Counted from the first letter of the stretch, positions 7,305-52,586 are shown. The stretch: DNA of 64,000 nucleotides from Bacteroidota bacterium (GCA_023381615.1 JAMCQL010000013.1:3869-67868); one strand, 5' to 3'. Program-made: numbers and translations. Notes: generated by a model from the letters alone, not told the origin.

Positions 7305-8639
7305 TCAGTCGGCCATCTTCCCCGTGCTTTTCAACCAACGCCGCTTTTCAAGCACGCGGTTTATATCTTTGTCCATACCGATAAGCGCCTGATCAAGCGT
7401 ATTCTTTCCCCAGACAACCGTCTCGATCCACTGCCCCATCTTATCTGTAACCTGTTCCCATTCAGGGATGCGCGGGAACGGACGCGAGGATTCAAGCTGG
7501 GTATAGAACGCCGAGATCAGCGGATTGCCGAGCAGCGTTGAATCCTGTCCCGACGAATGTCGGGATCCTTCGGACCAGGCGCTTTTCACAGCGGGGAGAT
7601 CGAAAGTCCCTCTGTAGAACTGCAGTTGGTTCTCGGGGAGCGAAAGAAATTCAATCAATTTCCAGTCTGCTTCTTTCTCCTTTGAACCGCGGAATATCAC
7701 AAAGCTGCTTCCACCCGCATTTGCGTCCCGGTTCTTGTTCACCGGAAGAGGAGCCACCGACCATTTGCCATTCAGATAACCGACGCGATTTCTCAACTCG
7801 TTTATATTCCACGGGCCGCTGATGAACATCCCGACATATCCAGACGCAAATGCCTGATACAAATTTGTCGTCGCGTTAGCTTCCATCGGAGAATAGCCGA
7901 GCTTAAAAAATTTCACGTAGTAATCGAACGCCTCACGATCATTCTGAGACAAAACATTGGAATAGCAGTCGTCATCTTTCAGTATATTTCCGTCATTTTG
8001 CCATGCAAAAAAGATCTCGTCCCATTCCAGGCCGGGGTTCACAGGCAGATAAATCCCGTAACAAGGACGACCGTTTAGTTTTGTCGAATAAGAAGTCAAA
8101 AGTTTCGCGGCTTTCAGAAGTTCATCCCAATTCTTCGGAGGTTGATGCATCCCTACCACACTCAACAGATCCTTCCTGTAGAAAAGCGCTCTCGTCTCAA
8201 CGTACCATGGAATTCCGTATACCTTTTTGCCCACAACATTCGTTTGCCAAATACCACTGAAATAGTTCGCTTCCTTCACAACATTTGATTTGGCGATAAA
8301 CGAATCGAGCGGCTCCAGCGCATCCATCGCATGAAGTTCCGATATCCACGTGTTGCCGAGCTGACACATATCAGGAGTTGCATTCCCCGCGAACGCCGTA
8401 AGCAATTTATCATGTGCTGAGCCCCATGGCACCACCTGAAGGTCAACGTAAATACCAGGATTCTCTCTCTCAAATTCTTTGATGAGCGAACCCAAATGCT
8501 CTCCCTCAGATCCCATTGCCCAGAAGGTGATCTTTGTAAGACCCTCGTTCCGTCTTGAACAGCCAAACACAACAAAGACTAACATCACCATCAATGACAT
8601 AACAATCGCTCTTTGAGAACGGGAATTATCTATTGTCAT
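7305..8639 (-). CDS. Extracellular solute-binding protein of a sugar ABC importer
   Basis: The 444-aa product has an N-terminal signal with a Cys (LVFVVFGCSRR). It looks like a family-1 sugar-binding protein (ITFWAMGSEGE..., GNTWISE, WYVETRALFYRKD) and sits 3 bp upstream of the permease genes. Confidence 0.85.
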   Translation of the reverse strand: MTIDNSRSQRAIVMSLMVMLVFVVFGCSRRNEGLTKITFWAMGSEGEHLGSLIKEFERENPGIYVDLQVVPWGSAHDKLLTAFAGNATPDMCQLGNTWISELHAMDALEPLDSFIAKSNVVKEANYFSGIWQTNVVGKKVYGIPWYVETRALFYRKDLLSVVGMHQPPKNWDELLKAAKLLTSYSTKLNGRPCYGIYLPVNPGLEWDEIFFAWQNDGNILKDDDCYSNVLSQNDREAFDYYVKFFKLGYSPMEANATTNLYQAFASGYVGMFISGPWNINELRNRVGYLNGKWSVAPLPVNKNRDANAGGSSFVIFRGSKEKEADWKLIEFLSLPENQLQFYRGTFDLPAVKSAWSEGSRHSSGQDSTLLGNPLISAFYTQLESSRPFPRIPEWEQVTDKMGQWIETVVWGKNTLDQALIGMDKDINRVLEKRRWLKSTGKMAD

Positions 8640-8800: not shown

Positions 8801-11329
8801 TTATTTTATCACGGCCATCTTTCTTACGCTAGTAAAATCTCCTGCAACAATCCGATAGAAGTACACTCCGTTTGGCAACCTGCTCGCGTCGAATTTCACC
8901 GTGTAGCTTCCCGGATTCTGACGTTCGTTAACCAACGTTGCCACCTCTCTGCCAAGCACATCGTAAACTTTCAATGTTACGATCCCGACAAAATCGGGAG
9001 AAAGCTGATAGCTGATGACTGTTGATGGGTTAAACGGATTGGGATAGTTCTGTTCCAAATCAAACTTAGTCGGGATTCCAGACTTGTTTTCCGAAATTCC
9101 GGTGACAGTAGTGAAGCCAGCTTTTGCTAGTCCATCCTGGATCACGGGATTCTTCATGAATGTATTCCAGACCCTCTGCGTCCTGTAGTTTTCAATCATT
9201 ATCATAATTGGTCCTTGGTCGATTCCAATGACATCAGGCCCCCACCAATTTGCCTTCAGATTGAACGCATCACGGAAGCCATAACCCATCCAGATATTAG
9301 CGCGATATGTATTGTACATGTATCGCAGCGTTGGAACGGAATACTCAGGAGTGAACGCTATGGAACCACCCGCCGCAGTCGGCGCTATTGTACCATCATC
9401 GTTCATTGCAGGCGGTGCTCCTCTGGCAATGTAGCCGTGATATCCTGTTGAACCAGGACCATCACACGCTGTCAGACCCCAGATGTTTGGTCCGTATCCC
9501 GTAAACCCTCCGGGATTTGCTATGCAATATTGTCTCTGTGCCAGAGTAGCAAGACGAGAATTTTGAAAATAAGTGATGTCCTTATTCTTCATGTAATTGT
9601 CAGCAATATTGCGATAGTCTATCCAGCATTGTGAATATTGGTGACCGAAAAGAGGCGGAAAATTTACGTAGGAATAACCGTAGTAAGTCTGCCAACTATA
9701 TCCGCTTGTCCAGGAATTCCAAACGCTTGCTGGAAGAGATGCACCAATACCCATGATGTTTAATATCATTCCTTCGTTATATCCGATCCAGCGTGCGCCT
9801 ATGAAACCGGATTCCGGCTGCCAACCCATAGTGAGAGAGCTATCGCCGTTTGTCATCCAGTTCCAGTCGGCACGATTGAAAATTGAATCGGCTAATGATC
9901 GGATTTGTGTCTCGGTCGTGTCCGTTCCAGTGAAGTACTGTTTGGAATACAATATTCCTGCAAGCAACAGACCGGTGTCAATTGAAGACAACTCGGATGA
10001 ACCGGCTCTTACCGCTGTATTCATACCAAGAAAATGATAGAACCATCCTTTGTATCCAATTGTGCCGGTGGAAGCCGTTCCCTCAGGTCCATTCCAAAAT
10101 GTCTTAAGAGTTGTGAGAGTCCTGTCTGCGCCCGCTTGCCGAGTTATCCAGCCGTGGTCAACTGCGATCCCTATTCCCGTCAAGCCGAAGCCAACTGCCG
10201 CAATGCTCGCTGCAGAAGTCTGTTCGCTTCTGTCTCTTACAAGTCCGTTAGACGGATTAGCCTCGTACCAGAAATAATTGAAAGCAGTATGCTGAACGAG
10301 ATCTAAGAAAGTACTGTCGCTTGCAAACGCCTGAGGGGTAACATTGACAGTGTCGGAACCGGGTCCTTCAACTTGATTAGTGTTTACACCGCGAACGAAA
10401 TAGTAATAGGTCGAGCTATTCGTGACCGAAACGTCGGCGTAGTCCTGCGTTTGAATTACTGCAGAGTTCAGTTTCGTGTACGACCCGCTCATGGAACTTG
10501 AGCGATAGACATTGTAACCTGCCAGATTGCTTTGCGAACTCCAGTCCCAATACAACATGGCGCTTTGGTCTCCTGATAACGACACAAGATTCTTCGGTGC
10601 AGCGGGCGTTGTGGTATCATTCTGCGACACCTTTGCAACGATTCTAATATTGTCAACCCACAAGGTGTGGAGCGAGTCATCCGCGGCGCCTTGATGAAAG
10701 TTCACATCCTTGAAGTTTGCCAGGGAAAAACCCGTAGGATATGGAGCAAATGCCGACAAAGGTATACTTACTCTTTGCCATGTCGTAGTGTCGGCATCGA
10801 TACCGCTTGGGAGATAGTCGCTTAGGTTTACAGTTGATGTTTTGGTGTTGGTTCCGTCCTCGAGGCCAATTTTCGGCAGGTCGACAGCAGGAACTGCATA
10901 GCGGCCGTTCATGTATATAACTACACTATCATAGCCGCTGACATCCTTTGATGCCCAACCCCAACTAGATATGAAAAGTCCCCAGTCGCCGCCGCTCACA
11001 CTCTTCCACTGCAAGAGTCCACTGTTATGGCCGGTGTAGTAATAAGTAGTGTCAATTATCAGCTTGTCCTTTGGAGAGTTTGGACCTCCCAAAGTAAGCA
11101 CACTTCCACCATTGGAGAATCCCCAAGATGCATCGTAATACCCGACACCAGTCGGGTCGTCCTCATCGAAGATTACAATATCCGGCTTTGCCTGCGCAAA
11201 AACGGAAATTGGCAATAGTACCAGCAGCAGAACCGCTGCTCTAAGGCAAATGAAGGAGCGAATGCTCATTGCTAGCCTCCTTTTTTGTTTTTCTGATTTT
11301 TCAAAAATCTTCGCAACATGTGAAGTCAC
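8801..11329 (-). CDS. GH144-like (glucoamylase-like, PF10091-type) glycanase with N-terminal CBM-like + Fn3 modules and a T9SS type-A C-terminal sorting domain
   Basis: The core reads LDLVQHTAFNYFWYEANPSNGLVRDR...AAVGFGLTGIGIAVDHGWITR, matching the glucoamylase-like family. An Fn3-like stretch (APKNLVSLSGDQSAMLYWDW...YNVYRS) precedes it. The C-terminus is FDLEQNYPNPFNPSTVISYQL...YFYRIVAGDFTSVRKMAVIK. The likely true start is ATG 11269, giving MSIRSFICLRAAVLLLVLLPISVFAQ, preceded by GGAGG. Confidence 0.75.
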   Translation of the reverse strand: MTSHVAKIFEKSEKQKRRLAMSIRSFICLRAAVLLLVLLPISVFAQAKPDIVIFDEDDPTGVGYYDASWGFSNGGSVLTLGGPNSPKDKLIIDTTYYYTGHNSGLLQWKSVSGGDWGLFISSWGWASKDVSGYDSVVIYMNGRYAVPAVDLPKIGLEDGTNTKTSTVNLSDYLPSGIDADTTTWQRVSIPLSAFAPYPTGFSLANFKDVNFHQGAADDSLHTLWVDNIRIVAKVSQNDTTTPAAPKNLVSLSGDQSAMLYWDWSSQSNLAGYNVYRSSSMSGSYTKLNSAVIQTQDYADVSVTNSSTYYYFVRGVNTNQVEGPGSDTVNVTPQAFASDSTFLDLVQHTAFNYFWYEANPSNGLVRDRSEQTSAASIAAVGFGLTGIGIAVDHGWITRQAGADRTLTTLKTFWNGPEGTASTGTIGYKGWFYHFLGMNTAVRAGSSELSSIDTGLLLAGILYSKQYFTGTDTTETQIRSLADSIFNRADWNWMTNGDSSLTMGWQPESGFIGARWIGYNEGMILNIMGIGASLPASVWNSWTSGYSWQTYYGYSYVNFPPLFGHQYSQCWIDYRNIADNYMKNKDITYFQNSRLATLAQRQYCIANPGGFTGYGPNIWGLTACDGPGSTGYHGYIARGAPPAMNDDGTIAPTAAGGSIAFTPEYSVPTLRYMYNTYRANIWMGYGFRDAFNLKANWWGPDVIGIDQGPIMIMIENYRTQRVWNTFMKNPVIQDGLAKAGFTTVTGISENKSGIPTKFDLEQNYPNPFNPSTVISYQLSPDFVGIVTLKVYDVLGREVATLVNERQNPGSYTVKFDASRLPNGVYFYRIVAGDFTSVRKMAVIK

Positions 11330-27635: not shown

Positions 27636-27911
27636 TTAGACGTCGACTATCCCCTTAATGATCCCTTCAATCATTCTCCTACTCTTGTAACGTTTTATCT
27701 TCCGCTCCGCCGCAAGAGCTTCTGCCTTCGTCCCGTATTCCTTCGTGTAAACCAACTCCCATGGACGGTACCTTGAAGTAAATCCCTTTTCAATAGTGTT
27801 GTGAAACTTCAGCCTGCGAATCGGGTATTCAGATGACCCGGCATAATACCGATCACCAACTTTGGAGTATAATATATAGAGATAATAACTCATCCGTAGA
27901 AAAAAGCCCAC
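27636..27911 (-). CDS. Small GIY-YIG nuclease-superfamily protein
   Basis: The product reads YYLYILYSKVGDRYYAGSSEYPIRRLKFHN...AEALAAERKIKRYKS, which contains GIY/YIG-like motifs plus conserved R and E. The likely true start is ATG 27893, giving 85 aa. The track start (GTG 27911) would run through the upstream terminator hairpin. Confidence 0.8.
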   Translation of the reverse strand: MGFFLRMSYYLYILYSKVGDRYYAGSSEYPIRRLKFHNTIEKGFTSRYRPWELVYTKEYGTKAEALAAERKIKRYKSRRMIEGIIKGIVDV

Positions 27912-27926
27912 CCTTAGTATCGGGCT
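27900..27926 (-). terminator. Rho-independent-type terminator after the tRNA-like element
   Basis: The minus strand reads AGCCC-GATACTAAGGGT-GGGCT followed by TTTTTT, where the T-run is the plus-strand A-run at 27900-27905. It starts 4 nt after the tRNA-like 3' end. Confidence 0.5.
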
Positions 27927-27930
27927 TCTG

Positions 27931-28013
27931 CTCCTCGGGCAGGACTCGAACCTGCATCCCGACAGCGTCGGGATAACACCCGATTGTCCCGATTTTATCG
28001 GGACTACCGAGGA
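27931..28013 (-). ncRNA. tRNA-Asn(GUU)-like element, non-canonical (possible tRNA pseudogene or tRNA mimic)
   Basis: The minus strand reads TCCTCGG TA GTCCCGATAAAATCGGGAC AA TCGGG TGTTAT CCCGA CGCTGTCGGGAT GCAGG TTCGAGT CCTGC CCGAGGA G. The acceptor stem is a perfect 7 bp and the T arm is canonical. It has U1-A72/G73 and a GTT triplet as in bacterial tRNA-Asn. However, the D arm is an 8-bp hairpin lacking G18G19, the anticodon loop is 6 nt, and the variable region is 12 nt. Confidence 0.5.
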
Positions 28014-28336
28014 ATATCAAAAACATACTCACAGAACTCTTCATCCTCAACTCGAACCTGCATCCCGACAGCGTCGGGATAACACCCGATTGTCCCGATT
28101 TTATCGGGACTACCGAGGAATATCAAAAACATACTCACAGAACTCTTCATCCTCAACTCGAACCTGCATCCCGACAGCGTCGGGATAACACCCGATTGTC
28201 CCGATTTTATCTGGACTACCGAGGAATATCAAAAACATACTCACAGAACTCTTCATCCTCAACTCGAACCTGCATCCCGACAGCGTCGGGACAACACCCG
28301 ATTGTCCCGATTTTATCTGGACTACCGAGGAATATT
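27945..28336. repeat. Tandem direct repeat, 106-bp period, about 3.7 copies
   Basis: Unit starts (ctcgaacctgcatcccgac...) fall at 27945, 28051, 28157 and 28263. Copies 1 and 2 are identical, copy 3 has one substitution (28212 G>T), and copy 4 has two (28292 T>C plus the same G>T). Homology ends near 28336. Each unit carries the tRNA-like 5' two-thirds plus a ~30-nt spacer. Confidence 0.95.
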
Positions 28337-28450
28337 AACAGAAAAATGCTACTAAATATATTCGCTGAAAACCATAAAATCAAAGACTTTTTTTAGTTGT
28401 GTTGTCCAGATTCGATCGAAGTACTCATGAGGATCGCAAGGATATGAGCC

Positions 28451-33355: not shown

Positions 33356-34231
33356 ATGACGAATGAAAACCCAATTGAAAAGACGATAAGAAATGTCGAG
33401 CTTTTCCTCAAACAGCAGGCTGAATTGTTCGGAGATGAAACATTCCTGCCTGCCGCATCTGCTCAGCTTGACGCGACTCAGGGGAATGCTTCAACACCGG
33501 CTGAAGTGAAAAAGCAGGCTCAGCAAAAAAAAGAAAACGAACAAGAATCGGCGGGATTCTTAGGAACTGATTTGAAACAAAAGCCAAAAACAATAAAAGT
33601 GACTGAGGATCGCGAACTCTTTGAAGGCGCGGTCCCGACAAGGTCGGGATGGAAAATCGATCCGCATTGGTATGAGAGCGAGTCTCTTGAAAGCCTGAAT
33701 TCTAAAGTCTCCGGCTGTTTGAAATGCCCGCTTGGCTCGACGAGAAAAAATTTCGTCTTCGGCGTCGGAAACCCGGACGCAAAATTAGTTTTGATCGGTG
33801 AAGCTCCGGGTGCCGACGAAGACGAACAGGGCGAACCCTTTGTGGGCCGCGCGGGACAGCTCCTCACGAAAATTCTTGCCGCGGTTCAACTCCGCCGCGA
33901 GGACGTTTACATCTGCAACATTCTCAAGTGCCGACCGCCGAACAATCGCGAGCCGCTTCCAACAGAAGTTGAGGCTTGTGAGCCATATTTGAAGAAGCAG
34001 CTCGAGATCATCAAGCCGAAGTTGATCATGTGCCTTGGCAGGATTGCCGGACAGTCGCTTCTGAAAACTAACACTACCTTGTCCGAACTGAGAAACAATA
34101 TTTATGAGTATCAGGGAATCAAGGTGCTCGTAACATATCACCCGGCAGCGCTTTTGCGAAATCCGAATTGGAAAAGACCTGCATGGGAAGACGTGCAAAA
34201 AATGCGCAAATTGTACGACGAACTCCCTTAA
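33356..34231 (+). CDS. Family 4 (Fe-S) uracil-DNA glycosylase with ~110-aa low-complexity N-terminal extension
   Basis: The product reads CLKCPLGSTRKNFVFGVGNPDAKLVLIGEAPGADEDEQGEPFVGRAGQLL and HPAALLRNP. Confidence 0.85.
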   Translation: MTNENPIEKTIRNVELFLKQQAELFGDETFLPAASAQLDATQGNASTPAEVKKQAQQKKENEQESAGFLGTDLKQKPKTIKVTEDRELFEGAVPTRSGWKIDPHWYESESLESLNSKVSGCLKCPLGSTRKNFVFGVGNPDAKLVLIGEAPGADEDEQGEPFVGRAGQLLTKILAAVQLRREDVYICNILKCRPPNNREPLPTEVEACEPYLKKQLEIIKPKLIMCLGRIAGQSLLKTNTTLSELRNNIYEYQGIKVLVTYHPAALLRNPNWKRPAWEDVQKMRKLYDELP

Positions 34232-36765: not shown

Positions 36766-39735
36766 CTAAAAGTCCCAGCCGAAGAAAAACTGATAAAAGA
36801 GCCCGTGTTGAAGTCTCTGGAAATTGTCTTCAATCCTTTTGCCGATATCATATCGGAGAACAAGGACTCCGCCAAGGTTGAATCGCAGCCCGACGCCGAA
36901 ATCGCCCAGCGTAGAAGTATACACGTTATCCCAAGCAGCGCCTGCGTCGAAATACGCAGCGCCCCGGATCGCCGTAAAAAGCATTCCGCCAAATGGAAAA
37001 TTTATGTTGAGCTCGTCAATCAGCGGAAACCGCAATTCCTCGCTGGCTATCCATATTTTCTTGCCGCGAATTCCCCAGAGAGGCCAGCCGCGCAGGTCCC
37101 AGCTCCCGCCCATGAAAAATCTTCTCGATTGTTCCCCTTGATTAAAAAGCAAGGCTTCGCGCGTGGCAAACGCAACTGTCTGACTCAATCTGAAATAACG
37201 CCTGTAGTCGAGCATCACCGTGTAGTAATTCACCGAGCCGTACTCGACGTCAGTTGTGTACGCAATACTCGCGAGAAATCTGTGCCCGTCGAGCGGACCC
37301 GTCGGCCCCCACAAAGAATTGTCTTCGACATACGCGACTGAATTCGAAAAGAGAAGCGACGTTCTCTCACCCGCACCGTAATAAAGCTCTTTGTAGGTAT
37401 TGGAAAGGCTCGTCGTCGCCTCGATCCGGTCGAATCTCGAAAGCGGATAGCTCAGTGCAAAATATCCGCCGAATGTCCTCTCGTAGAAATAAATATCAGG
37501 ATCGGTTAGGTCATATTGTCGCCCGGCAAAATTGAAAATGCCGTAAGCGTAATTCGTCCTATGTGTGAGAGAAATTTTCGAAATGGCAATGTTAAAACTC
37601 TTGAGGATTTCGTCTTGCGTCTGCGCGGTGTTGAAGAGCAGGAAGTAGTATTGGTCGTTGCCAAGCATGTCGCTCAATGCCATTGCCGCCCCGCCGGAAG
37701 TTCCGAAAACCGGGTCGGTCGATATCTGGCTTTCTGCAACGTCTATGCTGTATTTCGGTACGTATGGAGTCGCCGGTGTTCCCGCTTTAGAAGAATAGCT
37801 CTCCGCGTACCATGATGTGTCGTAGTTCGTAACCGCATAAGCAAAATGTTCTTTCGAATTGTGTATTCGCTGTTCAACACTGTCTATCATTCTTATTTGA
37901 AAACTGTAGTTTTCAAACGCACTGAATACTAATCCCGATGAATCAGTCCCGACAAAATCGGGATTGAAAGCGGCGGTTGGAAAGTTCGTGATTTTGTATG
38001 ATACGACAGAATCCGTCATCGCCGACAGATTCAGCGGCATGACGAAGATGTTTTGTCCGCCGTTTTCATTGCTTACGTAAGCAATTTCCTTTCCGTCGGG
38101 CGACCATGCGGGGGCATAATCCGACTCGCGTCCTTTGGTCAGGTATTTCATCTTTCCAGATTTCAGATCCATCAAGAATAGATTGTAATAGCCTTCATCC
38201 CCGAAAATTGTCCTGTCGGACGAGAAAATGATCCACTTGTCGTCAGGCGACCAAACAGGATCCCTGTCGTCATAGTAGCCGTGCGTCAACTTGTGAAGCA
38301 AACCAGACTGCAAATCATAAGTATATATGTTGAAGTATCCGGCCATAGAAGCGCCGGAGAAAACGATTTTCTCTCCGTCGGGCGAAAAAGAAACCGACCC
38401 AATTCTGCTTATGTCTTCGAGGCGTTTTTGACCGACGATTTTCTTTTTCTCCACATCATACAAATGCAGGACATCGGTCTCGCCGCTCTTCGAAACAAAT
38501 GCGAGCAAGCCGCCGCGCGAAATCGCCATCTTGTCCGACGGAAGATGGAAAGCCTCGAACTCGCTCGTGCGTTCTCCTTTTACGATCGGAACAGGCTGAG
38601 ATTTTTCAGCGAGCCGCTGCTCATAAACGTCTGTGTAGCCGCGGTGATTACCGATATAATAAATGTATTCTTTCCCGTCATGCGCCCTGTAAAAAACAGG
38701 AGTGTCGTTGAACCCTTTGGAATAGATGTCCCGCGTGACATGTGAAGGCAAATCATGCGAAGAAAGAAGCGGATAGTATTTCTTCTGGAGATGGTAGACC
38801 CAAATTTTGTCGAATTCCTTGTAGTTCAATCCGATCGTCAATTTCATATCTTCTTCAAAAGTTGAAGTCTTCCAGAAGTTTTCCATCAGCAAAAGAATCT
38901 TATCATCGCCGTAGTGTTCCGAAATAAATTTCAGGATATTCTGTCCTTCTTTGTACATCAGGAACGTTCCGTAGATTCTCGTCATGTCGGAGAGCGGAAC
39001 AAGATAGCCGCTCAGAACCGCATCGCGGATTACCATCTCCGCCTGATCGTCCCAGTTCGTCGACCAGAATTCTGCAAGTCCCTCGGAAAACCAGAGCGGA
39101 GGCTCGCGGTCGGTGCTCAGCCGATGATCACGAAGCACACGTGCAATCTTCGCCGTCATGAAAACATGTATAAGCTCGTGTCGAATCACGTGCCTCAACT
39201 GGTACAGCGAGCCGTCGTAAGGAATCACCACGCGTCCTTTCATGTATTCAAAGAAGCCGCCGACGCCTTCAGGTATGAATCCGGGAATGGTGTTCGTCTG
39301 CTCAAAGTACAAATGAGATGAATAGAGTATTAGCGGGATGCGGTGCGTGATGTTGATGTCGAACTTATTTTCCAAATAGCGGTAGCCGTCTTCGGCAATT
39401 TGAGCGCTCTGATTCGCAAGCTCGGTCATCTCAGGATAAAAGTAGATTTCGAAATGCTCAGTCCGAAGAGTTTGCCAGCGGAAATTAGTGTACTGGACCT
39501 TGTTTTGGCCAAAGTAATAAAACTGCGCCTCAGCGGCAGAAGCAAGGAACATAATCGGGAGTATGAAACGGATAATTTTGGTCACTGGTAGCTTAAAAAT
39601 GGGAAAAGTTGGCAATTTCCGCAAGACCAAATGGGATGGAATGAATTGGGATAGTTGAAGAACGGAATGATAGAAGGATGAAACGACGTGACCGTCACTG
39701 GAGTTTATCCCTCCTTGCGAGAAAGTGACGGTCAC
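36766..39735 (-). CDS. Outer-membrane fusion protein: peptidase-MA-like (HExxH) domain + PD40/TolB-like beta-propeller + Omp85 (bacterial surface antigen) beta-barrel
   Basis: The zinc site reads IRHELIHVF ... WFSEGLAEFWS. PD40 repeats include DPVWSPDDKWIIFSSDR and APAWSPDGKEIAYVSNENGGQNIFVM. The C-terminal barrel reads FFMGGSWDLRGWP...RFPL...AAYFDAGAAW...VLRYDIG and ends ...FFFGWDF. The likely true start is GTG 39585, giving MTKIIRFILPIMFLASAAEAQ, a good signal peptide. Confidence 0.7.
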   Translation of the reverse strand: MTVTFSQGGINSSDGHVVSSFYHSVLQLSQFIPSHLVLRKLPTFPIFKLPVTKIIRFILPIMFLASAAEAQFYYFGQNKVQYTNFRWQTLRTEHFEIYFYPEMTELANQSAQIAEDGYRYLENKFDINITHRIPLILYSSHLYFEQTNTIPGFIPEGVGGFFEYMKGRVVIPYDGSLYQLRHVIRHELIHVFMTAKIARVLRDHRLSTDREPPLWFSEGLAEFWSTNWDDQAEMVIRDAVLSGYLVPLSDMTRIYGTFLMYKEGQNILKFISEHYGDDKILLLMENFWKTSTFEEDMKLTIGLNYKEFDKIWVYHLQKKYYPLLSSHDLPSHVTRDIYSKGFNDTPVFYRAHDGKEYIYYIGNHRGYTDVYEQRLAEKSQPVPIVKGERTSEFEAFHLPSDKMAISRGGLLAFVSKSGETDVLHLYDVEKKKIVGQKRLEDISRIGSVSFSPDGEKIVFSGASMAGYFNIYTYDLQSGLLHKLTHGYYDDRDPVWSPDDKWIIFSSDRTIFGDEGYYNLFLMDLKSGKMKYLTKGRESDYAPAWSPDGKEIAYVSNENGGQNIFVMPLNLSAMTDSVVSYKITNFPTAAFNPDFVGTDSSGLVFSAFENYSFQIRMIDSVEQRIHNSKEHFAYAVTNYDTSWYAESYSSKAGTPATPYVPKYSIDVAESQISTDPVFGTSGGAAMALSDMLGNDQYYFLLFNTAQTQDEILKSFNIAISKISLTHRTNYAYGIFNFAGRQYDLTDPDIYFYERTFGGYFALSYPLSRFDRIEATTSLSNTYKELYYGAGERTSLLFSNSVAYVEDNSLWGPTGPLDGHRFLASIAYTTDVEYGSVNYYTVMLDYRRYFRLSQTVAFATREALLFNQGEQSRRFFMGGSWDLRGWPLWGIRGKKIWIASEELRFPLIDELNINFPFGGMLFTAIRGAAYFDAGAAWDNVYTSTLGDFGVGLRFNLGGVLVLRYDIGKRIEDNFQRLQHGLFYQFFFGWDF

Positions 39736-50886: not shown

Positions 50887-52586
50887 GATACCAATGCTTC
50901 TTCTTTGGATTTTTTTCCGATGGATCCCGACCCTTGTCGGGACAATAACGCTCCGCGGTCGCCGAGCTTAGCGTACGAGAGTCCTTTGAAACTCGGAGCG
51001 ACCTGAGCGATTTCATCAAATACTTTTTGAGCGGATTGATAGCGCATCTTTCCGCCAAGCAAATTACCTACAGCCGATATTATTTCCCACGATGAGCGCA
51101 CGTTTCGCCGCGGGCCTTTGTTCCATTTGTCGAACGCGCTTCCAAATTTATCGAGACGACTCATCGTGAATCTTCCGGGAACGCGCTCCTGCTCAAGCGT
51201 CGAGACCGCAGGCCGGAACATCTGTACCCGTCCGAGGAAATTCACGAACGTGCCGTACTTCTCCGCAAAAGTCGCGCTGGGAAATACGACGTCCGCAAGC
51301 TGTGTCGTCTTCGTCTTGACCCAGTGATTCACGATCAGAACATCGAGCTTGGTCAGGAGTTCTTCAATCTCTTTCGAAGCCGCGATATCATCATCCATTA
51401 CATAAAGCGCTTTGATCTTTCCAGCCGCGATCAATTCAAAAATTTTCTTCGAATCGACTCCCTTCGAGGAGACAACTCCGGCTTCGCGCGCACCGCAGCT
51501 GTTCGGAGTTTTGTCGGCGCGGATCAGTAGATTATCCTGGTCGCCTTCAATAGTGTGCTGCAGGAAATCGATGTTCGTCGTCCCGAGCACCTGCTTCGCA
51601 AATTTCTGCAGGATGTAGTTGTCTTCAACGGAAGAGTAAGCCGACCCGAACACAGCTATTTCGTCTTTTGAAAAAGGTTTCAATGCGTCGGCGGCGTGCG
51701 CGAGCGATTCATCCCAACCAGCCTCCTGCAAAACGCCATCCTTGCGAACTAACGGAGAGTTCAAGCGTTCAGCGGAGTTCACTTCTCTGAACGAGTTCAG
51801 CCTGCCGTTGTCACACATCCAGTAGCTGTTGACTTCCGGATTGAAACGCGGCGTGAGGCGAAGAATCTCGTTGTTCCTGACCCAGATGTTGATGTTGCAG
51901 CCGCGCGAACATCCCGCACAGATTCCTTCCGTCGAGGAAGTCTCCCATACTCTTGCCTTGAATCTGTAGTCGCGGTTTGTGAGGGCGCCGACAGGGCACA
52001 CATCGATCACATTCATCGAATATGGATCGTTGAGTTCCTTTCCGGGGAATGTATCAATGTAAACTCTATCGCCGCGTTCGACAAATGTCAAAGTCGGGTT
52101 CTTCACCACCTCGTCCATCACGCGAATGCAGCGAGAGCATAAAATGCAGCGTTCCGCATCGTAAACGACATTCGGCCCAAGCGGAACTCGTTTCGGCTTC
52201 TTGTTCTTGGCCTCTTCGAGAGCGCTGTGTCCAGGACCGTAGCTGTAAGTGTAATCCTGAAGATTGCACTCGCCGGCTTCGTCGCAGATCGGGCAATCGA
52301 GCGGGTGGTTGATCAGTATAAACTCAAGGACAGCTTTTCTAGCTTCAATGGCTTTCTCCGAGTTTACGTGTACCACCATGCCGTCCGATACTTGCGTTGC
52401 ACATGCGATCGCAAGCTTCGGCATCTTTTCAATTTCGACGAGACACATTCTGCAATTTCCGGCGACTGACAATCCCGGATGCCAACAGAAATGCGGTATC
52501 TCTATCCCTGCTTGTGCTGCTGCACGGATTATCGTCGTTCCATTTTCGACTTCTACAGTTTTACCTTCTATAGTTACCTTAGGCAT
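50883..52586 (-). CDS. nuoG: NADH-quinone oxidoreductase subunit G-like (short form, 567 aa)
   Basis: The N-terminal 2Fe-2S region reads CWHPGLSVAGNCRMCLVE. A His-ligated cluster reads HPLDCPICDEAGEC. A 4Fe-4S region reads CILCSRCIRV...CPVGAL. The molybdopterin-like domain is shortened. Confidence 0.85.
   Translation of the reverse strand: MPKVTIEGKTVEVENGTTIIRAAAQAGIEIPHFCWHPGLSVAGNCRMCLVEIEKMPKLAIACATQVSDGMVVHVNSEKAIEARKAVLEFILINHPLDCPICDEAGECNLQDYTYSYGPGHSALEEAKNKKPKRVPLGPNVVYDAERCILCSRCIRVMDEVVKNPTLTFVERGDRVYIDTFPGKELNDPYSMNVIDVCPVGALTNRDYRFKARVWETSSTEGICAGCSRGCNINIWVRNNEILRLTPRFNPEVNSYWMCDNGRLNSFREVNSAERLNSPLVRKDGVLQEAGWDESLAHAADALKPFSKDEIAVFGSAYSSVEDNYILQKFAKQVLGTTNIDFLQHTIEGDQDNLLIRADKTPNSCGAREAGVVSSKGVDSKKIFELIAAGKIKALYVMDDDIAASKEIEELLTKLDVLIVNHWVKTKTTQLADVVFPSATFAEKYGTFVNFLGRVQMFRPAVSTLEQERVPGRFTMSRLDKFGSAFDKWNKGPRRNVRSSWEIISAVGNLLGGKMRYQSAQKVFDEIAQVAPSFKGLSYAKLGDRGALLSRQGSGSIGKKSKEEALVS

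Follow-up and report, generated by a model that had tools for sequence, protein, structure and literature searches.

Hairpin-tagged tRNA-Asn pseudo-copies arrayed beside a small GIY-YIG nuclease gene in a Bacteroidota genome

A tandem array of 106-bp units found in a 64,000-nucleotide stretch of Bacteroidota DNA (the window) is very probably a hairpin-tagged pseudo-copy of a tRNA-Asn gene, belonging to a module which combines a tRNA gene, a small GIY-YIG nuclease gene and a short hairpin. The module is apparently shared by Kryptoniota, Ignavibacteria, Chlorobi and Bacteroidota (FCB group), widespread and undescribed, as no description of the arrangement was found in Rfam, Pfam, NCBIfam, PADLOC or the searched literature. 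That the module moves by a homing-type mechanism is a tentative proposal, somewhat more apt to be wrong than right, and the statement taken whole, a pseudo-copy array within a homing-type module, is evenly poised between belief and doubt. The preliminary description of the repeats had caught the remodelling of the tRNA, but had missed the adjacent GIY-YIG gene as a constant partner of the remodelled copies.

The array spans positions 27944-28335 and is one uninterrupted tandem repeat (Tandem Repeats Finder: period 106, 3.7 copies, 99% matches, no indels), in keeping with the exact 106-bp period first reported. A 106-bp repeat with 99% identity cannot have originated by chance. The minus-strand starts of the units are at 28331, 28225, 28119 and 28013 (Table 1). 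Each of them carries a 70-nt tRNA-like part ending at GGTTCGAGT, and an identical 36-nt spacer follows units 1, 2 and 3. Relative to the terminal unit 4, unit 1 differs at two positions (TCCAGAT and GTTGTCC), unit 2 at one and unit 3 at none; the comparison agrees with the earlier observation that divergence grows, by 0, 1 and 2 substitutions, with distance from the complete unit. Similarly, the complete T arm had been assigned to the terminal unit only, and the continuation CCTGC-CCGAGGA-G is indeed confined to unit 4. The 5' strand TCCTCGG has a possible partner in the segment TTGAGGA (28044-28050) of unit 3, and the pairing predicted earlier, with its two G-U pairs, is present (UCCUCGG-UUGAGGA) in the minimum-free-energy fold of a truncated unit. 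Both perfect 8-bp hairpins with 3-nt loops previously noticed were found, and they dominate the minimum-free-energy fold. The palindrome sitting in the D arm has one mismatch in units 1 and 2 (about 28199-28215 and 28305-28321), and at the distant locus L075 the D arm has been replaced by a hairpin identical to it.

Transcription of the array likely proceeds as a single transcript from the promoter-like site ahead of unit 1. The same TTGATT-17-TATATT motif is found ahead of canonical tRNA-Asn genes in relatives, the homologous leaders of which (L062, L067, L046) were read directly. The start codon of the GIY-YIG gene lies 6 nt beyond the terminator-like element that closes the array, and expression of the nuclease would therefore have to occur by read-through. 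The same layout, a terminator followed by the GIY-YIG gene, is found in L020, L062, L023 and L081.

Table 1. Features of the array, of the adjacent nuclease gene and of the palindromes in the window
Feature	Position	Strand	Description
Putative promoter TTGATT-17-TATATT	28355..28383	-	upstream of unit 1; from pattern scan
Unit 1	28226..28331	-	70-nt tRNA-Asn-derived part 28262-28331, T-loop truncated, plus 36-nt spacer
Unit 2	28120..28225	-	truncated unit plus spacer; 1 difference from unit 4
Unit 3	28014..28119	-	truncated, with spacer; no difference from unit 4 in 70 nt
Unit 4 (terminal)	27931..28013	-	remodelled interior; T arm, 3' acceptor strand and discriminator G preserved
'V' hairpin palindrome TCCCGAC-NNN-GTCGGGA	27957..27973	.	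in place of tRNA positions 38-48
'V' hairpin, further copies	28063-28079, 28169-28185, 28275-28291	.	
Second palindrome TCCCGAT-AAA-ATCGGGA	27987..28003	.	in place of D arm; second copy 28093-28109
Intrinsic-terminator-like hairpin and T run	27900..27926	-	after unit 4; sequence read directly
GIY-YIG nuclease gene	27636..27893	-	85 aa, Slx1/UPF0213-like; Pfam PF01541, E = 3.7e-14
Palindrome inside UDG gene	33633..33649	.	+3-nt replacement, missing from orthologs
Palindromes inside ORFs	7548-7565, 8983-8999, 11140-11157, 37947-37963, 50925-50942	.	

The derivation of the units is best appreciated in a contig from a sister strain (L005), in which unit 1 of the window and its spacer are followed, at the terminal position, by a canonical tRNA-Asn(GTT). 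L005 and the window do not differ in acceptor, T arm, terminator or the gene that follows, and unit 4 coincides with L005 from GCAGG onward. L012 and L013 have mosaic alleles, in which a canonical 5' half is joined to a remodelled 3' half; in L013 the sole unit is hairpin-bearing, and its anticodon stem is not pairable. L015 has lost the T arm together with the 3' end and the GIY-YIG gene, through a deletion between two 22-nt repeats. The comparison of these alleles indicates that the units are copies of the tRNA-Asn gene, the interior of which has been overwritten by a conserved GC-rich hairpin. The canonical allele and the mosaics bear out the tRNA-Asn scaffold recognized in the preliminary description, and serial duplication of a tRNA-derived unit was also rightly proposed. 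Among the three explanations originally offered, scars of a tRNA-targeting mobile element come nearest to the evidence. Decay of a tRNA as an idiosyncratic event does not hold, as the same hairpin resides in tRNA-Asn copies of distant lineages and in tRNA-Val copies of Bacteroidota.

The 85-aa product of the neighbouring gene consists of a catalytic domain and a basic tail, with no separate DNA-binding domain. Its relatives in the PDB are 1ywl, 1zg2 and SLX1, the closest solved structures being those of single-domain UPF0213 proteins and of the SLX1 nuclease domain. The catalytic residues Y6, Y17, R27, H31, N32 and E63 are invariant in 20 homologs across phyla. Identity across phyla is 54-70%, and the motif GFTSRYRPW never varies. 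Conservation of this kind indicates that the nuclease is under selection. When loci were looked up starting from the protein, all six members of the Asn subfamily were found to adjoin a tRNA-Asn gene and hairpin units, and all three members of a subfamily about 48% identical were found at a tRNA-Val gene with the same hairpin. At every look-up the hairpin begins 2-23 nt after the stop codon of the GIY-YIG gene, on the sense strand of the transcribed region. To judge from these loci, the 85-aa GIY-YIG gene is the constant partner of hairpin-bearing tRNA fragments. Across about 24 species of Kryptoniota, GIY-YIG genes and extra units co-occur (Fisher p = 0.02), and the cassette resides in about 3 of 25 species of the phylum. 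Its site is always tRNA-Asn, or tRNA-Val in the sister subfamily. At most loci of the family the hairpin unit follows the nuclease gene; in the window the array precedes it. The species of the window has kept an intact nuclease gene, with the hairpin after it broken or deleted. Hairpin arrays devoid of an adjacent GIY-YIG gene were found in L050 and L066.

Presence of the cassette is polymorphic. The filled allele L062 and the empty allele L059 have the native downstream flank in common, and the first tRNA copy of L062 carries a cassette-specific terminator. L081 conforms to the filled pattern of L062. The polymorphism is compatible with either gain or loss, since a precise deletion between repeats can give empty alleles. 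A direct repeat made by the 3' segment of the tRNA flanks the insert in L062, L074, L081 and L080, among others. The downstream repeat has been deleted in the window; a remnant is kept in L013. Tandem amplification has involved both the units and the nuclease genes.

The hairpin (consensus TCCCGA(C/T)-loop-(G/A)TCGGGA) stands in for part of the anticodon arm both in additional tRNA-Asn copies of Kryptoniota, Ignavibacteria and Chlorobiaceae and in tRNA-Val copies of cultured Bacteroidota. Its position in the tRNA is the same across more than 20 lineages. Comparison of 20 distinct inserts located between TGTTA and the T arm revealed a 7-bp stem common to 19 of them and loops that differ, ranging in length from 2 to 13 nt and at times hosting other, nested hairpins. 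Stem variants are compensated (TCCGCC/GGCGGA, TCCGTCCAT/ATGGACGGA, TCCCGAATA/TATTCGGGA, CCCCGAT/ATCGGGG, TCCCGT/ACGGGA). A scan of metagenomes returned 24 matches, about 17 of which are genuine loci; seven (L024, L025, L031-L033, L042, L043) are chance matches in GC-rich coding DNA. Hairpins are also found in the D loop, on both sides of the anticodon, in the T loop or nested within another hairpin, and in Pedobacter a near-complete tRNA-Val copy has the entire anticodon arm exchanged for the hairpin. Units are amplified to 15 identical copies in L050 and to about 15 in L069; a deletion between two hairpins marks L075, nested hairpins L079, and chimeric T stems L035 and L040. Most upstream units break inside the T-loop motif GGTTCRANTCC, and the T stems of downstream units carry uncompensated mismatches. 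Rfam searches of the window region and 8 related loci gave nothing at the gathering threshold except canonical tRNAs; weak matches to snoR28, rnk leader and CRISPR direct repeat were regarded as noise.

Several ideas on the nature of the hairpin were discarded. Hairpins are not mini-introns, as their removal does not restore positions 38-48. Their arms do not derive from the local anticodon stem, because the hairpin stem is unchanged though the stems of the hosts differ (TGCGG, TTCGG, TCCGG, ATCGG, TGCGA), and is the same also at tRNA-Val. A binding site for a dimer on double-stranded DNA is unlikely, given the 2-13 nt loops and the nested insertions. Models of the IS200/IS605 or integron attC type found no matching enzyme, target or core motif.

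These loci share a general layout. The tRNA gene is followed by one or more cassettes, and these by the original 3' part of the tRNA with its native terminator. Each cassette includes a tRNA 3' part, a terminator of its own, the GIY-YIG gene (about 85 aa), a tRNA 5' remnant and the hairpin as stand-in for the anticodon arm, and its GIY-YIG gene would be read through from the tRNA terminator. Unequal crossing-over, deletion and gene conversion among the direct repeats represented by tRNA pieces, terminators and hairpins very probably give rise to upstream units truncated in the T loop, downstream units truncated at the 5' end, multi-copy nuclease genes and mosaic alleles, and the array of the window is best taken as a product of recombination in such a tRNA-resident cassette. 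In the species of the window the terminal, once canonical gene was very probably converted to the hairpin allele, its D arm replaced by a second hairpin, the unit amplified to at least four copies, and the hairpin unit normally found after the nuclease gene deleted. As to mechanism, the cassette may be a selfish homing-type nuclease element, anchored in a tRNA gene which it would restore, and the hairpin may be the cognate structured site of the nuclease. In that role the hairpin may mark the end of the cassette, or make the extra copy uncleavable and non-homologous.

Several considerations weigh against homing. The protein has no DNA-binding domain, unlike SegB and I-TevI, and sequence-specific homing is thus not obviously possible. 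The strong conservation of the nuclease looks more like that of a useful cellular, or partnered, protein than that of a decaying selfish gene. A canonical tRNA beside the nuclease gene in cassette-bearing genomes would stay cleavable, and the model needs any disrupting sequence, a conserved hairpin not being required. The hairpin arrays of L050 and L066, with no GIY-YIG gene beside them, are a further difficulty. Horizontal mobility is conjectural, and the module is nearly absent from plasmid, phage and viral collections: the nuclease cassette has no copy on PLSDB plasmids or INPHARED phages and one in IMG/VR, and the hairpin plus tRNA-Asn pattern has no match in IMG/VR. The one match returned by a first viral scan, on an AT-rich giant-virus contig, was due to chance. 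A broader proposal, to be regarded as rather doubtful, is that a small Slx1-like GIY-YIG nuclease and its cognate 7-bp-stem hairpin make up a new kind of tRNA-resident genetic element, either a mobile cassette or a nuclease/RNA pair. As a mobile cassette of about 0.4 kb, the element would rebuild the targeted tRNA gene with no need of an integrase, and the hairpin would spread alone, even in-frame into protein genes. As a nuclease/RNA pair, a tRNA-scaffolded hairpin would control the enzyme. In either case the array described here would correspond to the hairpin component in amplified form.

The array may also be thought of as part of an RNA-protein module, in which the tRNA-scaffolded hairpin, co-transcribed with the gene, would be the RNA partner of the GIY-YIG protein, and could work as a type III-like inhibitor or antitoxin, as a decoy for a tRNA-directed nuclease, or as a regulatory or stabilising 3' element. 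According to this view, unlikely yet to be taken seriously, the array of the window would reflect a dosage amplification of the partner RNA ahead of the terminator and the nuclease gene. Promoter, tandem repeats, terminator and a nuclease gene with no room for its own promoter succeed each other in the window in the same order as in the ToxIN design. The hairpin is always found on the sense strand of the transcribed region, straight after the stop codon, and loops of 2 to 13 nt with nested hairpins are better suited to a folded stem-loop than to a double-stranded DNA site for a rigid dimer. The tRNA-Val copy of Pedobacter, with the hairpin in place of the anticodon arm, resembles an engineered tRNA scaffold. 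The amplification to 15 identical units and the strong conservation of the protein point in the same direction, as do the fusions and shared operons reported between GIY-YIG domains of the prokaryotic Slx1-like type and tRNA methyltransferase-like genes (PMC1564403). However, the 5' acceptor strand is missing from most downstream units, as is the 3' strand from most upstream ones, so that no tRNA-like fold is possible for them, and the T-stem mismatches of the downstream units are uncompensated. The strand asymmetry of G-U versus A-C pairs, chance matches included, favoured neither an RNA nor a DNA function. In addition, GIY-YIG enzymes are known as DNases, and PADLOC gave no match for the GIY-YIG protein. 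The place of the hairpin unit is also at odds with this scheme: in most loci it comes after, not before, the nuclease gene, and in the window's species the nuclease gene has remained intact with the post-gene hairpin broken or deleted.

It is improbable that a duplicated tRNA-Asn gene has merely undergone neutral decay and been invaded by a REP-like palindrome, the GIY-YIG gene being an unrelated neighbour. Such a view is prompted by the dispersal of the palindrome in this genome. The window hosts 11 exact matches, compared with 0.09 expected. The dispersed copies (5-6 in 64 kb) map at six sites in five ORFs, all within long ORFs and most outside Pfam domains. The array lacking an adjacent GIY-YIG gene in L050, that in L066, and the variable position of the hairpin within tRNA copies fit the same view. 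Yet, each of the nine protein-first look-ups led to a tRNA gene, with the hairpin 2-23 nt past the stop codon and with two tRNA identities involved. In other genomes about 290 kb of flanking sequence contain almost no dispersed copies, and across phyla the loops have drifted but not the stem. The preliminary description considered its claim refuted should the unit prove to be a common dispersed REP unrelated to tRNA; dispersal within ORFs goes halfway in that direction, but the relationship to tRNA stands.

Still less probable is that the units are stacked attL- and attR-type scars, left by integrase-driven islands or phages which target tRNA-Asn and cross over in the anticodon loop and in the T loop. 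These loops are the two classical sub-locations used by integrases within tRNA genes, and the breakpoints of the units coincide with both. The inserted DNA lies between direct repeats of the 3' part of the tRNA, and at a Bacteroidales locus (L084) a phage-type integrase gene lies beside a tRNA-Val fragment. L084 is the only locus with an integrase gene nearby; in the window, and at about 15 further loci, the repeats have none amid or next to them. The putative elements are just 70-480 bp long, the upstream 5' fragments are not expected from integrase-mediated insertion, and the extra copies are inexact and carry a conserved foreign hairpin. The scarcity of the cassette in the plasmid, phage and viral collections mentioned above argues likewise against vehicles of this sort.

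Unit 4 could be taken for a functional, highly aberrant tRNA-Asn or suppressor-like tRNA, since acceptor stem, discriminator G, T arm and GUU triplet are intact, in the terminal unit only. The remodelled complete unit is moreover found in at least eight assemblies, and a pattern scan detected one tRNA-Asn gene each, at this locus, in the chromosome-scale assemblies of related species. A role as a working tRNA is very unlikely, and unit 4 is better regarded as a tRNA-like pseudo-gene. No tRNA model accepts it. ARAGORN calls unit 4 alone, labelling it 'tRNA-???' and giving it a 2-nt 'anticodon', the equivalent of the 6-nt anticodon loop reported earlier. The best match in the tRNA clan of Rfam is tRNA-Sec, at 20.4 bits against a gathering threshold of 47, whereas canonical tRNAs at related loci score 69-74 bits. 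The D arm, an 8-bp stem closed by AAA, is devoid of G18G19, and the anticodon loop is 6 nt at best. In the minimum-free-energy fold (-43.5 kcal/mol, z = -4.8 to -5.5) the 8-bp hairpins dominate and the anticodon arm is absent, an 8-bp hairpin taking its place and GUU lying in an 11-nt linker. Mutually exclusive folds, as suggested at first, are possible, but the cloverleaf-like alternative is not the predicted one. The same hairpin units are plainly fragments in other lineages, and sister alleles have lost the 3' half (L015) or have an anticodon stem that cannot pair (L013). These dead alleles suggest that another tRNA-Asn copy exists and, unit 4 being non-working, tRNA-Asn would be supplied from elsewhere in the genome. 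The single gene detected in each of the related species weighs against such a postulated second copy. The pattern used in the genome scan was built for canonical, mosaic and remodelled units of this clade, and the contigs returned were those of relatives, none of them from the species of the window.

The gap between the DUF423 and GIY-YIG genes varies in steps of 106 bp, corresponding to 1, 2, 3 or 4 units, among assemblies of the same or sister strains, in which collapse by short-read assemblers could mimic variation. As the copy number differs between assemblies, four is the minimum backed by this contig and not a fixed number. Where the remodelled interior meets the complete 3' end, the junction has only 13 nt in common with a canonical gene; it was seen in at least eight independent assemblies, hence it should not be a k-mer chimera. 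An assembly artefact, either a repeat expansion or a chimera, may be suspected from the 1 to 4 units obtained in different short-read assemblies, but can practically be dismissed, as assemblies from NCBI, JGI, ENA and Logan repeatedly show the same unit structure and the same remodelled complete junction, and analogous arrays reside on chromosome-scale contigs of relatives (L046, L050).

Stand-alone GIY-YIG proteins of the UPF0213/bacterial Slx1 type are numerous (1,429 representatives at E <= 1e-10 in a 50%-identity library), and to our knowledge none has an assigned role. The strict, conserved genomic partnership of one clade with a tRNA gene and a specific hairpin leads to a testable hypothesis on substrate and function. 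If the cassette is mobile, it would represent a very small route into essential tRNA genes which leaves them intact; should the hairpin work at the RNA level, a nuclease would be under the control of a natural tRNA scaffold. Cultured hosts, as Algoriphagus aestuariicola and Pedobacter sp. LMG 31464, make experiments feasible. On the practical side, the units give false tRNA calls and break short-read assemblies. Odd or false calls include 'tRNA-???', a tRNA-Cys called falsely in L084 and, in L013, an anticodon of 4 bases.

Features of the module recall different known systems. Unit 4 has a long D stem, a tiny loop and an extra-arm region, as tRNA-Sec and allo-tRNAs. However, its 20.4 bits are far under the threshold, the acceptor stem measures 7 bp and the T stem 5 bp, UCA or any other usable anticodon loop is missing, and the peculiar features come from an inserted palindrome common to obvious fragments. 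The succession of promoter, non-coding tandem repeats, terminator and read-through nuclease gene in the window is reminiscent of type III toxin-antitoxin systems (ToxIN, CptIN, TenpIN). In these, however, the ToxN-type toxins are endoRNases of a fold other than GIY-YIG; in the module the repeat is tRNA-derived, and in most loci the hairpin unit follows the gene. Similarly to REPs and RAYTs (REPtrons), short GC-rich hairpins with a conserved stem and a free loop cluster around one nuclease-type gene and have spread elsewhere, and copies found in-frame inside protein genes recall the Rickettsia palindromic elements. The enzyme of the module is a GIY-YIG protein, not a Y1/HUH transposase, the hairpin measures only 16-19 nt, and dispersal has been seen in this genome only, inside ORFs rather than in intergenic regions, transposition being putative.

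As with islands and prophages integrated in tRNA genes, the insert brings its own 3' part, restores the tRNA and leaves a direct repeat of the 3' segment, with break points at the anticodon loop and the T loop. It differs because it has no integrase, because cassettes are only 0.4 kb and the duplicated copy is modified by a hairpin, and because upstream 5' fragments and tandem units of 70-110 bp are also present. T4 SegB is a free-standing GIY-YIG homing endonuclease encoded in a tRNA gene cluster; its preferred cleavage site, recognized through GGTTCRANTCC, lies inside the tRNA-Asn gene of phage T2L, and inheritance of its gene drags flanking tRNA sequence along (PMC2330249). SegB is about 220 aa long, has a DNA-binding part, is carried by a phage and is associated neither with hairpin pseudo-copies nor with tandem arrays; the protein of the module is an 85-aa Slx1/UPF0213-type domain, chromosomal and conserved across phyla. 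In comparison with homing endonucleases of the SegB and I-TevI type, the module protein has the catalytic core (Tyr, Tyr, Arg, His/Asn, Glu) and lacks a separate DNA-binding domain. The resemblance to SegB lies in the position of a GIY-YIG gene amid tRNA genes and flanked by tRNA-derived repeats, and in the T-arm motif of SegB, in which most upstream units of the module break. As expected for homing endonucleases, the cassette is present or absent at one fixed site among close relatives.

In the window, the tandem repeats are part of a conserved association that combines a hairpin and a small GIY-YIG gene with a tRNA gene. As the preliminary description stated, they form one tandem repeat, and Tandem Repeats Finder reports a single array (period 106, 3.7 copies, 99% identity, no indels). 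The order on the minus strand is prfA, DUF423, array, terminator and the gene for an 85-aa GIY-YIG protein; next comes an oppositely oriented squalene/phytoene synthase gene. Every unit contains 70 nt, from TCCTCGGTAG through GGTTCGAGT, followed in units 1-3 by an identical 36-nt spacer. Only in unit 4 does the 70-nt part continue into CCTGC-CCGAGGA-G and an intrinsic-terminator-like hairpin. Units 1, 2 and 3 carry 2, 1 and 0 substitutions relative to unit 4, the same gradient as first reported. The predicted fold (-43.5 kcal/mol, z about -5) is dominated by two perfect 8-bp hairpins, also noticed at the outset, and in the fold predicted for a truncated unit the envisaged UCCUCGG/UUGAGGA pairing is formed; all the initial descriptive statements hold. 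In each unit a sigma-70-like -35/-10 pair spaced by 17 nt arises from TTGATA, where the spacer ends, and TAAAAT, at the loop of the D-arm hairpin; if the host phylum uses such promoters, the remodelled D arm could thus create internal ones.

Unit 4 is not a credible tRNA. ARAGORN calls it alone, as 'tRNA-???' with a two-base anticodon, and no Rfam tRNA-clan model reaches threshold on it (best tRNA-Sec, 20.4 bits vs 47); canonical neighbour tRNAs score 69-74 bits with Rfam. G18G19 is missing from the D arm, at most 6 nt make up the anticodon loop, and in the stable predicted fold the second hairpin takes up the strand that would form the 3' side of the anticodon stem. A functional, aberrant tRNA is a less likely explanation of the unit.

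The array is an amplified, hairpin-bearing pseudo-copy of tRNA-Asn. A look-up of the DUF423 protein yielded 10 assemblies from the species of the window and 6 from one about 97% identical; across them, the spacing between the DUF423 and GIY-YIG genes varies in 106-bp steps, corresponding to 1, 2, 3 or 4 units. In L005 (L numbers denote loci from other assemblies or metagenomes) unit 1 and a spacer are followed by a canonical tRNA-Asn(GTT), which matches the window in its acceptor, T arm, terminator and downstream gene. L013 and unit 1 of L012 are mosaics, canonical through CTGTTA and then carrying the hairpin ATCCCGAC-GTT/CTT-GTCGGGAT. In L013 a remnant (GCAATCGGCTGTTATCCCGAC...) abuts the GIY-YIG stop codon, and L015, devoid of T arm, 3' end and nuclease gene, is a deletion between a post-stop remnant of this type and the upstream unit. 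Differences in unit number and allele, mosaics and the deletion indicate that the locus recombines actively, the repeats undergoing deletions, conversions and amplifications; an assembly artefact is less likely. Some genomes hold no usable tRNA-Asn at the locus, so that another tRNA-Asn gene presumably exists.

About 17 genuine loci with differing host tRNA-Asn sequences were found in a metagenome scan for GTCGGGATGCAGGTTCGAG, and others came from protein-first look-ups. In the extra tRNA-Asn copies of all these loci, positions 38-48 of the tRNA are replaced by the hairpin, giving CTGTTA-TCCCGAC-N2-4-GTCGGGA-TGCAGGTTCGA. The 7-bp stem is common to 19 of the 20 distinct inserts, loops are almost all different, and variant stems are compensated. 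The hairpin also occupies the 5' side of the anticodon (L020, L070), the D loop (L078 and L075, the latter with exactly the TCCCGATAAAATCGGGA of the window) and the T loop (L020, L075, L079). Since it is found at several tRNA positions elsewhere, the remodelled interior of the window units corresponds to two copies of the hairpin element; pure decay of a tRNA gene combined with an unrelated palindrome is less likely. One stretch of L079 is packed with GC-rich hairpins that have TCC...GGA ends and fall into several families; some are T-loop insertions and one is nested within the loop of another, a pattern suggesting repeated insertion of hairpins into loops.

Features in the window and at related loci
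Feature	Locus	Position	Strand	Sequence or host
Array	window	27944-28335
Unit 1 start	window	28331	minus
Unit 2 start	window	28225	minus
Unit 3 start	window	28119	minus
Unit 4 start	window	28013	minus
Sigma-70-like pair	window	27992-28020	minus	TTGATA-17-TAAAAT
Sigma-70-like pair	window	28098-28126	minus	TTGATA-17-TAAAAT
Sigma-70-like pair	window	28204-28232	minus	TTGATA-17-TAAAAT
Weaker pair, unit 1	window	28310-28338		TTAATA-17-TAAAAT
Palindrome outside array	window	7548-7565		TCCCGAC-loop-GTCGGGA or close variant
Palindrome outside array	window	8983-8999		as above
Palindrome outside array	window	11140-11157		as above
Palindrome outside array	window	33633-33649		as above
Palindrome outside array	window	37947-37963		as above
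Palindrome outside array	window	50925-50942		as above
Variant stem	L050, L079			TCCGCC/GGCGGA
Variant stem	L066			TCCGTCCAT/ATGGACGGA
Variant stem	L062			TCCCGAATA/TATTCGGGA
Variant stem	L078			CCCCGAT/ATCGGGG
Variant stem	L080			TCCCGT/ACGGGA
Unit array	L050	797-2430		Kryptoniota, CAVQQJ010000008.1 (3.5 Mb)
Toxin-antitoxin pair by cassette array	L074	3684-4251
Crowded hairpins	L079	1430-2480
Cassette at tRNA-Val(TAC)	L081	1281-2600		Algoriphagus aestuariicola GCA_017254835.1
Cassette at tRNA-Val(TAC)	L083	1369-1830		Pedobacter sp. LMG 31464 GCA_014172375.1
Integrase gene by tRNA-Val fragment	L084	130-1760		Bacteroidales MAG JADHVR010000013.1

The window contains 11 occurrences of the palindrome, vs 0.09 expected; five, or six counting a compensated variant, are outside the array. 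All of these are within long ORFs, for the most part in tails or linkers that no Pfam domain covers, and the five host ORFs are unrelated (a solute-binding protein, a secreted glucoamylase with two copies, UDG, a PD40/peptidase protein and a NuoG-like protein). The UDG copy, encoding VPTRSG, is an in-frame +3-nt replacement absent from three orthologs, which have V-LNPE, V-TKEE or VLNKE instead. Palindromes away from the tRNA locus are almost missing in about 290 kb from other genomes.

The 85-aa protein is a GIY-YIG domain (PF01541) matching no family in NCBIfam or PADLOC; the nearest solved structures are the UPF0213 proteins 1ywl and 1zg2, then the SLX1 nuclease domain. Homologs (54-70% identity) reside in Kryptoniota, Ignavibacteria, Chlorobiaceae and 'Bacteroidota' MAGs, and share invariant Y6, Y17, R27, H31, N32, E63 and the motif GFTSRYRPW. 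At E <= 1e-30 a profile search retrieved 10 representatives, a number that rises to 1,429 at E <= 1e-10. In 6/6 protein-first look-ups the nuclease gene lies beside a canonical tRNA-Asn and hairpin units; tandem nuclease genes, in 2-3 copies, are present at many loci, and L069 carries about 15 units, each of 68-69 nt. The hairpin always starts 2-23 nt past the nuclease stop codon. The tRNA terminator typically directly precedes the nuclease start codon (the gap is 6 nt in the window), so that the nuclease would be expressed by read-through. Immediately downstream of the triple GIY-YIG cassette array of L074 resides a ParE/PhD toxin-antitoxin pair.

A genome scan, whose pattern covered canonical, mosaic and remodelled units of the clade of the window, matched 25 species, most labelled Candidatus Kryptoniota or 'Bacteroidetes bacterium'; the species of the window was not among the contigs returned. 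DUF423-tRNA-Asn synteny is common among them. Extra units (L046, L050, L062, L066) and the nuclease gene (L062, L067 and probably L046) co-occur in these species (Fisher p = 0.02). Two of the contigs, L046 and L050, are chromosome-scale. The former has one truncated hairpin unit ahead of the canonical gene. In the latter, a canonical tRNA-Asn is preceded by 15 identical truncated tRNA-Asn units of 109 bp, which have a spacer homologous to that of the window and a fully compensated hairpin of another sequence, TCCGCC-TGC-GGCGGA; the L050 array has no neighbouring GIY-YIG gene. The native downstream flank is common to L062 (filled) and L059 (empty). The Kryptoniota-type tRNA-Asn pattern was also met in contigs binned as Anaerolineales, Sumerlaeota or Ardenticatenia (L044, L047, L049, L054, L060); mis-binning, or a tRNA sequence that many lineages share, could explain this.

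The same design occurs at tRNA-Val(TAC) in Bacteroidota proper, with the nuclease family of L080, the sole IMG/VR relative (about 48% identical). Hosts are Algoriphagus aestuariicola, Pedobacter sp. LMG 31464 and a Bacteroidales MAG; the first two are cultured, hence experimentally tractable. In Algoriphagus three cassettes, each made of GIY-YIG, TCCCGATGCAATCGGGA, T arm, 3' end and cassette terminator, lie downstream of tRNA-Val genes, the last having a different, native terminator. In the Pedobacter tRNA-Val copy TCCCGAC-ATTTCA-GTCGGGA replaces the whole anticodon arm. In the MAG (L084) a phage-type integrase gene adjoins a 5'-truncated tRNA-Val fragment, followed by a GIY-YIG gene and a hairpin unit miscalled by ARAGORN as tRNA-Cys(GCA).

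In the mechanism we favor, the module would be a selfish, homing-type nuclease cassette that restores the tRNA gene in which it resides. The hairpin may be the structured cognate site of the enzyme, or a device for immunity and homology-breaking. Against homing, the nuclease lacks a DNA-binding domain, shows the conservation of a useful gene and is absent from mobile replicons (plasmid and phage collections yielded no relative), and a canonical, presumably cleavable tRNA copy stays beside it; nor does homing demand a conserved hairpin. The main rival is a partnership at the RNA level, the tRNA-scaffolded hairpin acting as inhibitor, decoy or regulator of the nuclease, in a layout analogous to type III toxin-antitoxin systems. 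COG4123, the tRNA-Val m6A37 methylase, may be a lead in this direction. Such a partnership is consistent with reported fusions of bacterial Slx1-like domains to tRNA-methyltransferase-like domains (PMC1564403). Scars left by an integrase are less likely than either.

For homing, the best precedent is SegB of phage T4, a GIY-YIG endonuclease encoded among tRNA genes, whose preferred site is inside a tRNA-Asn gene and is recognised via a T-arm motif (PMC2330249); most upstream units described here end within that motif. No description of the tRNA/hairpin/GIY-YIG arrangement was found in Rfam, Pfam, NCBIfam, PADLOC or the searchable literature. The arrangement is filed with known kinds, free-standing GIY-YIG cassettes and tRNA-gene-resident elements, and there is a substantial chance that the module is a new kind of element.
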